DNA of 64,000 nucleotides, taken from NCBI GenBank assembly GCA_947628825.1, contig CANRBH010000003.1, positions 8,084 through 72,083 on the forward strand, written 5' to 3'. Below the pieces are notes generated by a model. The model had not been told where the DNA came from and did not search any database. It worked only from the letters and a program-made list of their open reading frames with translations. The translations under genes and the position numbers were made by a program. Position 1 is the stretch's first letter; each line of letters begins with the position of its first letter. This document shows, one piece after another, positions 37,067 to 40,675 of the stretch. This DNA is from an uncultured Clostridia bacterium (GTDB lineage: Bacteria; Bacillota; Clostridia; TANB77; CAG-508).

Positions 37067-38203
37067 TTATAATATTGCTCCTAAAACTAGAATTCCTAAA
37101 TTGTCTTTATATATTTCATCAAATTGAGATATTGGCAAAGGGTTCTCTCCCATTCCTACTTCTATTGTATAACCGGGTCTATTGTAATTTTGTATAAACC
37201 AATCTTTGTATCCCGCAAAACTTGAATTATATGGTGTGTCTTCTAGCGAATATCCACTTACTTCCGCTAGTTTCTCTCCTATTTCTAATGCTTGTGGTGG
37301 ATTGTAATTTTGAAATCTCCAATAAATTGTTTTGCCCTGAGAATGGTATGCTAGTATAAGTCTAAAATCATGTCTTAAAGTAAAATTATATACAGCTATT
37401 GATTCTGGTTCTGTTAAAGGTGCTAATCCTACAAAGTCTCTTGGAGCTGGTCTTGTATATCCTTGTGAATATTTTATTGCTTTAGCATTTTGCCAAAGTG
37501 CAGGAAATTGTAAATTTAAATCCACACCTCTAATATTTGCTTTCCATCCTGAAGTAAATGGAATTTGTGGAAAATAGCTTGCTATTTCTTTTGCAAAATT
37601 ATAAATTTCACTGTTAGGAACAATTTCTCCTGTAACTAAGTCTACCCCATCTGGATTTACCATTGGTACAATATAAATAGATGTGTTTTTATAAAGTATA
37701 TTTGCAGATACACCATATATATTTAAATTATTTTTGTAAGCATAGCAATAATCTGCTAAAAATTTCATAAGTACAACAGATGTTATCCACTCGTTGGCAT
37801 GATACGATGCAGAATAAAAAACCTTCTTATTCCCTTCCCCTATTTTTATATAAGGTATATCTTTTCCTAAAATGCTTTTTCCTATCGTTCCTATTTCAAG
37901 AAATGGATAAAGAACTTTTAAAGAATTTAAGTTTATGTTTAATATACTTGAACTATAACTTATATTAGTTGGAACAATAAAATTTAATGCACCATTTATG
38001 TATGGACTAAGTGCATTTCACGTATTAGGACCAACAATACCATCTGCTATTAATCCAAAATTTTTTTGAAAATATAATACTGAATTGTAAGTATTTCTTC
38101 CAAAAATACCATCAATCTCCCCATTATAAAATCCTAGTTTTTGTAATAAATTTTGTAAAAATTCTACCATAGGGCCGGTAGAGCCTATTTTTAAAGTTTT
38201 CAT
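37067..38203 (-). pseudogene. M14 zinc carboxypeptidase (gamma-D-Glu-diamino acid endopeptidase-like) with an N-terminal peptidoglycan-binding domain, interrupted by one in-frame TGA
   Basis: ORFs 38018..38260 (PG_binding_1: [30 protein letters not shown]) and 37067..37768 are in the same frame. The frame is open between them (NALSPYING...[13 protein letters not shown], carrying the HxxE zinc motif). The only interruption is the TGA at 38018-38020. Confidence 0.7.
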
Positions 38204-38278
38204 ATTATAATGTATGTTATTCTTATTGTAGATGATACTTTTATTTTTATAAATAACCAAAATTTTTTACTAAAGTAG

Positions 38279-38308
38279 TTGACAAAACTGTTAAATTAGT
38301 ATTATAAT
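38279..38308 (+). promoter_or_regulatory. tRNA-Leu promoter, TTGACA-18 nt-TATAAT
   Basis: Consensus hexamers about 20 nt upstream of the first GCAGATATGG copy. Confidence 0.6.
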
Positions 38309-38328
38309 AAGTATTGTCGTTGATACAC

Positions 38329-38410
38329 GCAGATATGGCGGAACTTGCTGAGGCTGTTCGAACGTAGTGAGTTACAGCCTCAGTATGTGTAGCTAGATAT
38401 GTTATTTTAT
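38329..38410 (+). repeat. 82-nt unit made of a 17-nt copy of the tRNA-Leu 5' end plus a GC-rich 10-bp hairpin, directly preceding the tRNA
   Basis: GCAGATATGGCGGAACT occurs at 38329-38345 and again at 38411-38427. Hairpin CTGAGGCTGT (38348-57) / ACAGCCTCAG (38374-83). Confidence 0.6.
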
Positions 38411-38498
38411 GCAGATATGGCGGAACTGGTAGACGCACAGGACTTAAAATCCTGCGGACTAATAATCCGTCCCGGTTCGATTCCGGGTATCTGCACCA
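38411..38498 (+). tRNA. tRNA-Leu (anticodon TAA), type II with a long variable arm, CCA encoded
   Basis: Manual fold: GCAGATA TG GCGG..CGC A CAGGA CTTAAAA TCCTG CGGACTAATAATCCGT CCCGG TTCGATT CCGGG TATCTGC A CCA. Confidence 0.95.
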
Positions 38499-38882
38499 CT
38501 AGAACACCAAGTATTTTGAGAAATCAGAACTTGGTGTTTTAATTTTAAAATAGCGCAAAGTTCTAACACTTTTTCAAAGTATGAATTTTTTTTAAGTTAA
38601 AAATGTATTTTTTGAAACAGATTACCTGACTTGCTACTTCGGTAATTTGTTCTTTTTTATATTTAATGCTAATGCGTTACTAATTACATTTGCAGAATTA
38701 GATGATAAACCTGTATGGATGATTTTAATATGATAAGGTATTAAGGATTACGATTAACAAATTTACGCATATATCCTCATTGATGAAGCAGATGCTAAAA
38801 AAAAATGATATACAAATTATAAAGTTAAATAATGGTGGGTTTATAGGAATTGAATAAAATAAATAAAAATTTAATAAATCAT

Positions 38883-38911
38883 TTGACTTTTTCACTTATT
38901 TTGAGTATAAT
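38883..38911 (+). promoter_or_regulatory. promoter of the candidate antisense (antitoxin) RNA, TTGACT-17 nt-TATAAT
   Basis: Exact hexamers and spacing. Part of the left arm of the inverted repeat. Confidence 0.55.
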
Positions 38912-38917
38912 AATTAT

Positions 38918-39012
38918 AGAAAGATGAGATACCACAGAAATGTGGCGTATCGTTTGATTAATATTTTAAATTAAAATACATCTCTAACGATCCAACAGAG
39001 ATGTGTTTTTTT
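38918..39012 (+). ncRNA. candidate cis-antisense sRNA (type I antitoxin-like), about 95 nt
   Basis: Runs from about 7 nt after the -10 to the bidirectional terminator ACATCTCT-loop-AGAGATGT (38978-39004) plus its T-run. Overlaps the last 9 sense codons plus the stop codon and the 3' UTR of the convergent small ORF. Confidence 0.5.
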
Positions 39013-39136
39013 CATTGTCTAATTTTCTTACTGTAACAACTAGAGCTACAAATAAGGCAATAGCGACAACGGTTACTATTGCAAGTTCAATAAATAATAT
39101 GTATATAAAAAATAAGTAGACTTGTTCTAATAACAT
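38984..39136 (-). CDS. 50-aa hydrophobic peptide, type I toxin-like
   Basis: Manual translation: MLLEQVYLFFIYILFIELAIVTVVAIALFVALVVTVRKLDNEKNTSLLDR. AGGAGG 8 nt upstream. One TM helix plus a charged tail. Below the ORF-track cutoff. Confidence 0.55.
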   Translation of the reverse strand: MLLEQVYLFFIYILFIELAIVTVVAIALFVALVVTVRKLDNEKNTSLLDR

Positions 39137-39200
39137 ATGCATCGCCTCCTCTCAAGTAGGATACGATACACCACATTCTGTTTCTCTCATCTAGTTATAG

Positions 39201-39229
39201 ATTATACTTTATTAATAGATAAAAATCAA
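39201..39229 (-). promoter_or_regulatory. promoter of the toxin-like mRNA, TTGATT-17 nt-TATAAT
   Basis: Read on the minus strand. Part of the right arm of the inverted repeat. An about 55-nt leader runs to the ATG at 39136. Confidence 0.55.
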
Positions 39230-39516
39230 TAATTTTTTTACTAAAAAGCAAAAAAATGTTCTATTATATTTTATGTCTAAAAATATTATCAAAAATTCTA
39301 ACAGATAAACATTTTTTTTATCAATGATAAGTTAGACTGTTTTTCTAATAAAATTTCTAACATTTAATTTAAATTTTTAGAAAAGCAGTTTTTTATGTTT
39401 TAGTTGCAGATTTATCAAGATTTATAGCTTTATACTATTATGGTATAGCTGAATTAGTGCATATTAAACATTGATAAAAATTGTTATTCAATAGCAAAAA
39501 TAGAGAGAATAAAATT

Positions 39517-39572
39517 CTTAAAATCCTGCGGACTAATAATCCGTCCCGGTTCGATTCCAGGTATCTGCACCA
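39517..39572 (+). repeat. 56-nt direct repeat of the tRNA-Leu 3' portion (anticodon loop to CCA), att-like
   Basis: 55/56 identical to 38443-38498, with a single G-to-A difference at 39559. Confidence 0.9.
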
Positions 39573-39576
39573 AAAT

Positions 39577-39613
39577 ATCAGGTTAGAAATCAAATTTCTA
39601 ACCTGATATTTTT
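39577..39613. terminator. bidirectional terminator (perfect 14-bp stem)
   Basis: ATCAGGTTAGAAAT-caa-ATTTCTAACCTGAT followed by ATTTTT. It lies 3' of the tRNA fragment on the plus strand and 3' of the IMPase gene on the minus strand. Confidence 0.7.
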
Positions 39614-39683: not shown

Positions 39684-40466
39684 TTAATCTTTAATAATAT
39701 TTTTTTTAATTATATTAATAACTTCATCATGTACTTTTCCATTGCTTATTATTGCACCATTTATACTTTGGTCATATCTTTGTTCATTTCCAAATAAATC
39801 CGTTACCTTTCCACCAGCCTCTTCAACAATAACTTTTACTGCTGCAATATCACAGTGTTTATGTTCTGTTCCCGTAAAAATTGTTAAAGTATAATCTCCA
39901 GTAGCAACTAAACAACCTGCTCTTGTAATACTTCCAATATCATTTAAGCGAGTTTTCTTTCTTAATTCTTCAAATACTTTGCAAACATTATATTCTGCCT
40001 TAGACCACATATCACAATGACCTACTGCTCTAATATCATCTAAATTATAATCATTCACAGAAATTTTTTCATTATTTTTATAAGCTCCTTTTCCTTTAAT
40101 AGCTGTATATAAACTATCTGTAAAAGGATCATAAACTACTCCAACTTTTGGGACACCATCAATTACTAATGCCAAAGAAAATACTGCTACTGGTATATGT
40201 CTAGCATACATAGCTGTTCCATCAACTGGATCACATACCCATACAAGATTACTTATACCAAATTGTTCTTCTTCGCCATCTACACTATGCTCCGGATATT
40301 TTTCCTTTACTTTTTTAATTAAATATGAATTAATTTCTGTATCAGCATTAGTTACAATTGTTTTATCTCCTTTATAACTAGCACCATTATTTTGATTAAA
40401 GTATTTAATCATTATTCTACCTGCTTGATATGCAATATCTTTTGCAAATTCTAAATACTCTTCCAT
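39684..40466 (-). CDS. inositol monophosphatase family protein
   Basis: 260 aa. WVCDPVDGT motif and overall IMPase-like pattern. Confidence 0.85.
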   Translation of the reverse strand: MEEYLEFAKDIAYQAGRIMIKYFNQNNGASYKGDKTIVTNADTEINSYLIKKVKEKYPEHSVDGEEEQFGISNLVWVCDPVDGTAMYARHIPVAVFSLALVIDGVPKVGVVYDPFTDSLYTAIKGKGAYKNNEKISVNDYNLDDIRAVGHCDMWSKAEYNVCKVFEELRKKTRLNDIGSITRAGCLVATGDYTLTIFTGTEHKHCDIAAVKVIVEEAGGKVTDLFGNEQRYDQSINGAIISNGKVHDEVINIIKKNIIKD

Positions 40467-40617: not shown

Positions 40618-40675
40618 TCTGTACCATTAGAGCACCAAATGTTTTGAGAAATCGGAAACTTGGTGTTTTAATTTA
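40618..40675 (+). repeat. third, degenerate copy of the tRNA-Leu 3' tip plus its downstream terminator
   Basis: TCTGTACCA followed by ttagagcaccaaatgttttgagaaatcggaaacttggtgttttaattta, compared with TCTGCACCA followed by ctagaacaccaagtattttgagaaatcagaacttggtgttttaatttta at 38490-38547. Confidence 0.7.

Follow-up and report, generated by a model that had tools for sequence, protein, structure and literature searches.

A conserved cassette pairing a gene for a small hydrophobic peptide with a converging antisense RNA, a probable type I toxin-antitoxin-like family in uncultured gut Clostridia

A 64,000-nt stretch of contig CANRBH010000003.1 from an uncultured Clostridia bacterium (hereafter the window; all coordinates are positions in it and the signs (+) and (-) refer to its strands) contains, at 38864-39236, a compact cassette of ~370 bp bounded by two outward -35 boxes. 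Within it, a gene for a 50-residue hydrophobic peptide on the (-) strand faces a promoter for a predicted antisense RNA on the (+) strand; the two genes share a terminator stem-loop and their transcripts would begin with homologous sequence. Judged on comparison of the sequences of its many relatives, the cassette probably belongs to a family of type I toxin-antitoxin-like modules, not described before, that is found in uncultured gut Clostridia. The narrower claim, that it couples a gene for a small membrane peptide to a cis-antisense RNA, can be made with higher confidence than any claim of type I function. A preliminary description of this stretch had proposed such a type I-like arrangement, in which a hydrophobic peptide gene and a converging cis-antisense RNA overlap at their 3' ends, and the coding constraint on the open reading frame (ORF), the promoters, the hairpin over the Shine-Dalgarno (SD) sequence and the asymmetric decay described below support that proposal.

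Extent and conservation of the cassette

The limits of the cassette are sharp. Blastn similarity to the window starts at ~38864 and ends at ~39236 in nearly all of the 93 fetched loci, and in an alignment of 85 distinct loci, drawn from 79 loci in ~75 species-representative metagenome-assembled genomes (MAGs) and from metagenome contigs, column conservation is high from -35 box to -35 box and collapses outside. The distance between the two -35 boxes is 338-351 bp across loci. Of the 350-bp unit framed by inverted repeats that was originally described, the unit itself therefore stands, but its extent is corrected to ~38864-39236 and the repeated arms do not lie at its ends.

It should be stressed that the window alone proves little, since promoter-like matches by themselves are not above chance in this AT-rich DNA: the promoter scan found 8 such sites, against 10.9 expected, at 25% G+C. 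The cassette is judged real because it is conserved in register across the 85 distinct loci from other genomes.

The peptide gene and its product

No ORF of 60 aa or more is present in 38880-39232, an observation of the preliminary description that is borne out by the window ORF list, nor is there one in the larger interval 38499-39516. The ORF of 50 codons plus TAG (MLLEQVYLFFIYILFIELAIVTVVAIALFVALVVTVRKLDNEKNTSLLDR; 38984-39136 (-)), recognised from the ORF list, protein matches, codon diversity, a predicted helix and hydropathy, lies with its AGGAGG exactly where it had been placed. It runs from ATG at 39136 to TAG at 38986-38984. The stop codon thereby falls within the loop of the terminator, whose stem codes for the conserved C-terminal motif NTSL. 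A further in-frame ATG two codons upstream gives rise to a 52-aa version in the ORF list. Since the AGGAGG (39150-39145, 8 nt ahead of the 50-aa ATG) is too close to this upstream ATG, the 50-aa start is the likely one.

The 50-codon frame is intact in 62 of the 85 loci, and ~10 others show a variant of 49 codons whose C-terminus differs. Across codons 1-36, diversity per site is 0.17, 0.06 and 0.22 at codon positions 1, 2 and 3, respectively, position 2 being the most constrained, and the ratio of nonsynonymous to synonymous divergence (dN/dS) is ~0.44. On these alignments the ORF is under coding constraint, and the codon-position pattern and the integrity of the frame favour translation. The low synonymous divergence within the ORF (dS ~0.30) hints at constraint at the RNA level as well. 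RNAalifold places conserved hairpins within the coding region (alignment columns 142-200; window ~39000-39058 (-)), one base pair exchanging CG, UA and UG (19, 17 and 15 sequences, respectively).

Structure prediction yields a single continuous helix spanning residues 2-49, with a predicted local distance difference test score (pLDDT) of 91. Hydropathy exceeds 1.6 in every 19-residue window starting at residues 1-23, with a maximum of 3.07, and a hydrophobic core of 31 residues (6-36) is followed by the mixed-charge tail RKLDNEKNTSLLDR. The peptide contains no proline. In its length of 50 aa, predicted helix, hydropathy and coding constraint it has the properties of a small (<~60 aa), hydrophobic, membrane-directed peptide.

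Comparison with known families, as had been suggested, brought no toxin-family match in Pfam, NCBIfam or PADLOC, and no meaningful match of any kind in these three, in PHROGs or among PDB sequences. Pfam scans of the window peptide and 24 relatives returned nothing beyond hydrophobic noise; neither an Fst-type peptide nor a PXXXG motif was found. Relatives of the peptide are plentiful, with 589 clusters at 90% identity in a large protein collection, and on this count and its dN/dS the ORF is conserved. The best 120 of the 589 are all at least 82% identical over the aligned part and most are exactly 50 aa long; they bear no informative names, three being labelled 'hypothetical protein' or, for one, with an implausible ATPase name. 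A profile search of a 50%-identity library retrieved 114 representatives only and no link to a larger family. Rfam gave only tRNAs at gathering score, the best sub-threshold match being SpF39 (30.7 bits against 60), a likeness that is architectural only. Searching for peptide strings found no paper in the searchable literature.

Promoters and the leader of the peptide mRNA

Both of the converging promoters previously described were recovered by the promoter scan at the same coordinates, and both are conserved in 75 loci. That of the peptide mRNA is TTGATT-17-TATAAT (39201-39229 (-)). Over the 75 loci its -35 box is TTGATT in 45, TTGACT in 12 and TTGTTT in 8, the -10 box is TATAAT in 68 and the spacer is 17 in 65. 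The promoter for the antisense RNA, TTGACT-17-TATAAT (38883-38911 (+)), has TTGACT (62 loci) or TTGACA (12 loci) at -35, TATAAT at -10 in 75/75 and a spacer of 17 in 74. It is closer to consensus than its partner in 61 of the 75 loci, the reverse being true in 1.

Further motifs were seen on the outer side of the peptide promoter. In about a third of loci the motif (A)ATGTTCGC immediately abuts the peptide -35 box; it is absent from the window lineage, and may be a regulator site or part of the true left end of the unit. At 39263-39324 (-) in the window there are two further strong promoter-like sites directed as the peptide gene is, TTGATA-18-TATAAT and TTGATA-18-TAGAAT, in a stretch common only to the closest relatives, L016 and L018.

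The predicted 5' leader of the peptide mRNA (39137-39197 (-)) comprises an arm homologous to the antisense 5' end (39161-39197) and, downstream of it, the SD sequence AGGAGG (39145-39150). In the minimum-free-energy fold, which amounts to -17.0 kcal/mol for the window leader, the SD sequence and the spacer to the start codon are paired with upstream GUGUAUCGUAUCC in a hairpin covering 39132-39177 (-), and the 3' portion of the leader arm is the strand that pairs with the SD region. Leader structure was assessed by folding each sequence individually, with the start codon as anchor; with the short leader alignment, gap placement kept RNAalifold from returning a structure. The SD sequence is paired with the upstream leader in 53/53 mRNA folds and in nearly all of the 61 distinct leaders, and the hairpin shows A-U to G-C exchanges at -6, -11 and -15.

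The shared terminator and the antisense RNA

The stem-loop in which both genes end (38968-39012) has stems at 38978-38985 (ACATCTCT) and 38997-39004 (AGAGATGT) that enclose an 11-nt loop; it was missed by the scan tool, whose loop limit is 8 nt. Its stem is invariant in 67 loci, with the exception of a compensated insertion in L062/L063, where both arms carry a matched addition (CATATCTCT...AGAGATATG), a change that supports the stem. The U-tract on the (+) strand is GTTTTTTT, with 7-8 U, whereas on the (-) strand only the short, interrupted AUUUUAAUUU is present. As in the window, so in most loci the peptide-sense U-tract is short and interrupted, for example UAUUUUAA or UAUUCUUAA (alignment columns 235-245). 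By its sequence, the terminator would thus be strong only for the (+) strand RNA and looks weak in the peptide sense. It had originally been taken as bidirectional: the stem-loop and its strength for the antisense RNA agree with that description, but termination of the peptide transcript at this short U-tract is predicted to be weak.

The predicted antisense RNA, ~95 nt long (38918-39012 (+)), begins with a 5' stem-loop (38922-38955), continues with an AU-rich spacer that varies in length and closes with the terminator. Its complementarity to the peptide mRNA is perfect and covers the 3' end together with the last 9 codons. Its fold has an energy of -24.5 kcal/mol (z = -4.9), its alignment comprises 63 distinct copies and it ends in 6-8 U in all loci but one. 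At the sequence level, then, an antisense gene of ~95 nt with a promoter in 75/75 loci and a strong terminator lies opposite the 3' end of the ORF. A link between the sequence of the terminator loop and the 5' motif of the antisense RNA, seen by eye in some lineages, proved not to be systematic and was dropped.

The surroundings of certain copies bear on termination in the peptide sense. At loci L001-L006 the cassette is positioned between gatC and gatA, within the gatCAB operon and co-oriented with it. Since no promoter-like site occurs there between the cassette terminator and gatA, it appears that gatA must be transcribed through the terminator, and the expression of gatA and gatB should depend on read-through from the cassette. 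Such a placement fits leaky termination in the peptide sense.

The inverted duplication and a predicted fold-back of the mRNA

The inverted duplication that had been pointed out is real, and joins the antisense-side arm (38918-38953 (+)) to the reverse complement of 39161-39197. In every locus both predicted transcripts begin with homologous sequence (consensus AGAAGAUGAG..CAGAnnUGUGGCGUGUCGCU). The arms change jointly between lineages: both read AGACAGA in L001 and L020, AGAUAAG in L046 and GGCAAACC in L082. The preliminary description had both RNAs starting with nearly the same stem-loop. While the homologous starts are as described, only the antisense arm folds stably: an extra CC, found in that arm only, lets it form a CCAC/GUGG stem, and in 66 of 67 loci its stability exceeds that of the mRNA arm (-10.7 against -5.9 kcal/mol).

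The covariation of the arms was quantified by treating them as a helix in the peptide-sense transcript. Over 67 loci this helix has 19 pairs, with 93.8% of cells occupied by standard pairs, and in 11 of the 19 both partners change; these values were not attained in any of 500 column shuffles. When one arm is shifted against the other by 1-3 columns, pairing falls to 21-61% of cells. With RNAalifold the long-range helix is found only in the peptide sense, at -43.2 kcal/mol and 22 pairs, against -19.1 kcal/mol and 0 pairs in the opposite sense.

The leader motif ACAGAGUGUGG is, in addition, complementary to the invariant terminator 5' arm CACAUCUCUG. In minimum-free-energy folds of the terminated mRNA the leader pairs with the terminator region, replacing the terminator hairpin, in 43 of 53 cases, the energy difference between this pairing and the hairpin being only ~2.8 kcal/mol. 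The fold of the terminated window mRNA has a z score of -3.6, while its read-through form folds with paired arms at -81.2 kcal/mol (z = -8.0). Covariation and folding suggest a hok-like 5'-3' fold-back of the peptide mRNA, which would need either read-through or displacement of the terminator hairpin. The homology of the leader to the antisense 5' end would then be best explained by both pairing with the same 3' segment. Pairing in trans between the antisense 5' domain and the leader or start region, in the style of par or SprA1, was rejected on duplex energies: with non-overlapping mRNA the 5' domain gives -22.5 kcal/mol for cognate, -22.4 for non-cognate and -20.6 for shuffled partners.

Distribution, copy number and decay

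The MAGs in which the cassette occurs are titled uncultured Clostridia, Clostridium sp. or similar, with one Lachnospiraceae, and come from the guts of humans, rabbits, goats, deer and mice. Among the carriers are Clostridium sp. CAG:343, CAG:567, 28_12 and 28_17 and a closed MAG of 1.55 Mb. The flanking genes vary: besides gatC and gatA at L001-L006, there are an integrase gene, a C39 peptidase and a two-component system at L007-L014, where the copies adjoin the Phage_integrase gene, and various tRNA genes elsewhere. A tRNA lies within the fetched flanks in 12 of 60 loci, a raw count that is no more than suggestive of an association with tRNA genes. Phage and plasmid collections yielded no DNA match, and IMG/VR contained no relative.

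Copy number is 1-2 per genome. In one MAG the two copies are 98% identical over exactly 388 bp (L024 1016-1403 and L025 944-1330), beyond which their contexts are unrelated, and no target-site duplication was seen at the junctions of this pair. At L056 (2211 and 3451) the cassette is carried by a tandem duplication of 1,240 bp.

Decay of the cassette is one-sided. At least 10 loci have lost the peptide promoter, SD sequence, start codon or N-terminal codons while retaining an intact antisense gene, and among the loci examined there was no clear case of an intact peptide gene with a destroyed antisense gene. L075 has lost both its antisense promoter and the stop codon of the peptide, and carries a mutation in the peptide -10 box. 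Read from sequence, this is the pattern that would be expected if loss of the antisense RNA were tolerated only after the peptide had been disabled.

Weighing the interpretations

Several points weigh against a toxin-antitoxin function. Both RNAs and their ends are predictions, and the toxicity of the peptide is putative. The net charge of its C-terminal tail is only +1, whereas many type I toxins have tails rich in lysine, and in the libraries searched no similarity to any known toxin or antitoxin family was found. Since dS is low, the conservation of the ORF may partly reflect RNA-level or recent-transfer effects and not protein function. The cassette is present as a single copy in most genomes, at differing sites. 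As to the arms, gene conversion between the inverted repeats, or the self-complementarity within each arm, would produce covariation as well, and the strand asymmetry of the transitions between them, which give G-U 185 times in the peptide sense against 83 in the antisense sense, comes from counts that are not phylogenetically independent.

The alternative that fares best, though we think it rather unlikely, is that the product is a non-toxic small membrane protein, perhaps one that modulates a membrane process or serves in a stress response, with its expression tuned by a cis-antisense RNA; the cassette would then be a regulated accessory gene and not an addiction module. Such a gene would equally have its ORF, promoters and antisense arrangement conserved, toxicity being the putative part of the toxin interpretation, and it would suit a tail that is mixed-charge and not strongly basic as well as the single copy in most genomes. 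However, the unit is self-contained, moves between unrelated contexts and, in the window, sits on an integrative remnant; its SD sequence is sequestered; the antisense promoter is consistently the stronger; and the peptide side is lost where the antisense side is kept. An ordinary small membrane protein would need none of these four traits, all of which one would expect of a toxin paired with an RNA antidote.

A second alternative concerns the arms and is, in our view, decidedly improbable. They might act at the level of DNA, as operators for a host regulator of both promoters or as recombination or cruciform sites subject to gene conversion, without any RNA fold-back. Both arms do begin at the predicted transcription start sites, a helix will be predicted from any inverted repeat, and lineage-specific changes common to both arms are what gene conversion would produce. 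Yet the CC of the CCAC/GUGG stem is kept only in the antisense arm in all lineages, and homogenising conversion is disfavoured because it would erase such systematic differences between the arms. The G-U bias towards the peptide sense and the presence of the helix on one strand only also speak against a DNA-level role; the site of a host factor should stay constant and not co-vary, and the cassette itself encodes no DNA-binding protein.

Finally, a non-coding element resembling a miniature inverted-repeat transposable element (MITE) with an incidental ORF and promoters, or a trans-acting small RNA gene with a meaningless ORF, might be read into the sharp homology boundaries, the differing contexts, the 388-bp unit at two sites in one MAG and the promoter boxes that look like inverted repeats at both ends, but it is hardly credible given the codon-position pattern and ORF integrity, the lack of target-site duplication and of terminal inverted repeats beyond the promoter hexamers at the junctions of that 98%-identical pair, the 1-2 copies per genome and the empty searches of phage, plasmid and viral collections. 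The MITE-like look that the preliminary description had ascribed to the unit is not upheld, the arms being internal to the promoters.

Comparison with known type I systems

The architecture of the cassette is closest to that of par of pAD1 (fst/RNA II) from Enterococcus faecalis. In par, converging promoters lead to a shared intrinsic terminator with complementary loops able to start RNA contact, the toxin mRNA sequesters its SD sequence in a 5' stem-loop, and the toxin is a small hydrophobic peptide with a charged tail (PMC7472228). The cassette has the same converging promoters, shared terminator and SD-sequestering 5' stem-loop as this member of the Fst/Ldr group, and likewise encodes a small hydrophobic peptide with a charged tail, although its peptide-sense termination looks weak. 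The repeats of par are direct and transcribed in opposite directions, giving 5' regions whose complementarity covers the start site of the toxin, whereas those of the cassette are inverted and make the 5' regions alike. Nor was 5'-5' pairing above the shuffled control found for the cassette, and its peptide has neither an Fst match nor a PXXXG motif. Since its repeats are inverted and its peptide is not Fst-like, the cassette is not a member of the par family.

In hok/sok of plasmid R1, the 5' end of the hok mRNA pairs with its 3' end, which keeps the mRNA inert, and the target of Sok is the leader of hok and not its 3' end. For the cassette mRNA a similar contact between the two ends is predicted; it would keep the mRNA inert and depends in part on read-through. 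In contrast to Sok, the cassette antisense RNA would target the mRNA 3' end, and the peptide is unrelated in sequence to Hok.

Overlap of an antisense RNA with the 3' end of a toxin mRNA is also the arrangement of txpA/RatA and bsrG/SR4 of Bacillus subtilis, and the size range of these toxins matches. Pfam and NCBIfam scans gave no sequence similarity to them; the overlap of the cassette is centred on the shared terminator, and it differs from these systems in its homologous leader and antitoxin arms. In B. subtilis and Clostridioides difficile, type I modules are commonly carried by prophage-like or integrated elements (PMC6563280), and a location on an integrated element is seen for the cassette in the window too. 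The modules of C. difficile encode membrane peptides of 34-59 aa with a charged C-terminus, lie in mobile or prophage-like regions and in many cases have Sigma B-type promoters (PMC6563280). These modules (e.g. CD2517.1/RCd8), with which the comparison is by description, share with the cassette a host of class Clostridia; the cassette promoters, however, are of near-consensus housekeeping type, and the peptide belongs to no family known to Pfam, NCBIfam or PADLOC.

The tRNA-Leu insertion and its neighbourhood

In the window the cassette resides in an insertion of 1,018 bp (38499-39516), without an integrase, between two 56-bp direct repeats. The left, attL-like repeat (38443-38498 (+)) is the 3' half of an intact tRNA-Leu(TAA) gene (38411-38498); the right, attR-like repeat (39517-39572 (+)) is a partial copy of the tRNA 3' half that matches at 55 of 56 positions. 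The original terminator hairpin of the tRNA follows directly after the right repeat (39572-39613). In 17 metagenome contigs (L094-L110) the site is empty and tRNA-Leu runs straight into this hairpin, which identifies 38499-39516 as an insertion at the tRNA 3' half. Direct repeats and empty sites are thus present, as in a tRNA-integrated islet, whereas an internal integrase gene is not, the insertion having no ORF of 60 aa or more. At L017 the same cassette is accompanied by the next ~290 bp and the junction with the tRNA-Leu 3' half, while the other side differs and carries a transposase-like ORF. The insertion would be a remnant of 1 kb, or a miniature integrative element, in tRNA-Leu. The cassette would be the one conserved part of its cargo and may stabilise it.

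Additional features were observed around the insertion. The hairpin right after tRNA-Leu (38499-38545; AACACCAAGT...ACTTGGTGTT, then TTTTAATTTT) recurs 2.1 kb downstream at 40619-40674 with 89% identity. Ahead of this copy stands TCTGTACCA, a sequence similar to the tRNA end TCTGCACCA. This second site may be an older att-like scar enclosing an inositol-monophosphatase gene (39684-40466 (-)). Upstream of tRNA-Leu, within 38280-38401, there is a perfect TTGACA-17-TATAAT (38280-38309), and the leader harbours a copy of the tRNA 5' end (38329-38354; 26 nt, 85% identity) in an imperfect inverted repeat with 28-nt arms; this copy may be a degenerate tRNA or a processing element. Further away, an M14 carboxypeptidase ORF (37067-37768 (-)) is missing ~85 positions at the start of the Pfam profile, and a separate ORF (38018-38260 (-)) has PG_binding_1; the region 37067-38260 (-) looks like one gene split by frameshifts, and may be a pseudogene.

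Proposed mechanism and significance

The following scheme is proposed. A moderately strong promoter of sigma-A type would produce the mRNA for the 50-residue, single-helix membrane peptide. Because its leader buries the ribosome-binding site in a hairpin, this mRNA would be born translationally silent, and the probable 5'-3' fold-back would add to the silencing. The stronger converging promoter would direct the ~95-nt antisense RNA, with its 5' stem-loop and strong terminator, to a higher abundance. As a minimum, the overlap of the two RNAs would take in the last 9 codons and the terminator hairpin; it would extend over ~95 nt if the mRNA reads through. Their first contact could plausibly be made through the complementary 11-nt terminator loops, and the resulting duplex may lead to degradation of the mRNA or lock it in an inactive state. 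Within the mRNA, the leader would find a partner in the terminator 5' arm and, where transcription reads through, a further one in the complement of the antisense 5' domain; the antisense RNA, which has the same sequence as the leader, would compete with it for this 3' partner.

A more specific version of this scheme is offered tentatively, and with more doubt than confidence. The antitoxin RNA would be a molecular mimic of the toxin mRNA leader, expression would be set by a three-way competition of leader-3' fold-back, SD hairpin and antisense binding, and the ~350-bp unit, from promoter to promoter, would move without a transposase of its own. We know of no type I system described with such a leader-mimic antitoxin logic. 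To our knowledge, moreover, hardly any type I toxin-antitoxin modules are known beyond a few cultured model species, since genes of this size escape annotation.

The family presented here is unnamed in every library searched, and is widespread in a clade of uncultured, small-genome gut Clostridia of humans, rabbits, ruminants and mice. Its co-varying inverted arms lead to a falsifiable prediction, that of a 5'-3' fold-back in a Gram-positive 3'-overlap system. If the cassette is a true pair of toxin and RNA antidote, it would provide a marker of integrative remnants, a counter-selection tool for organisms that lack genetics and a compact natural example of control based on RNA structure.

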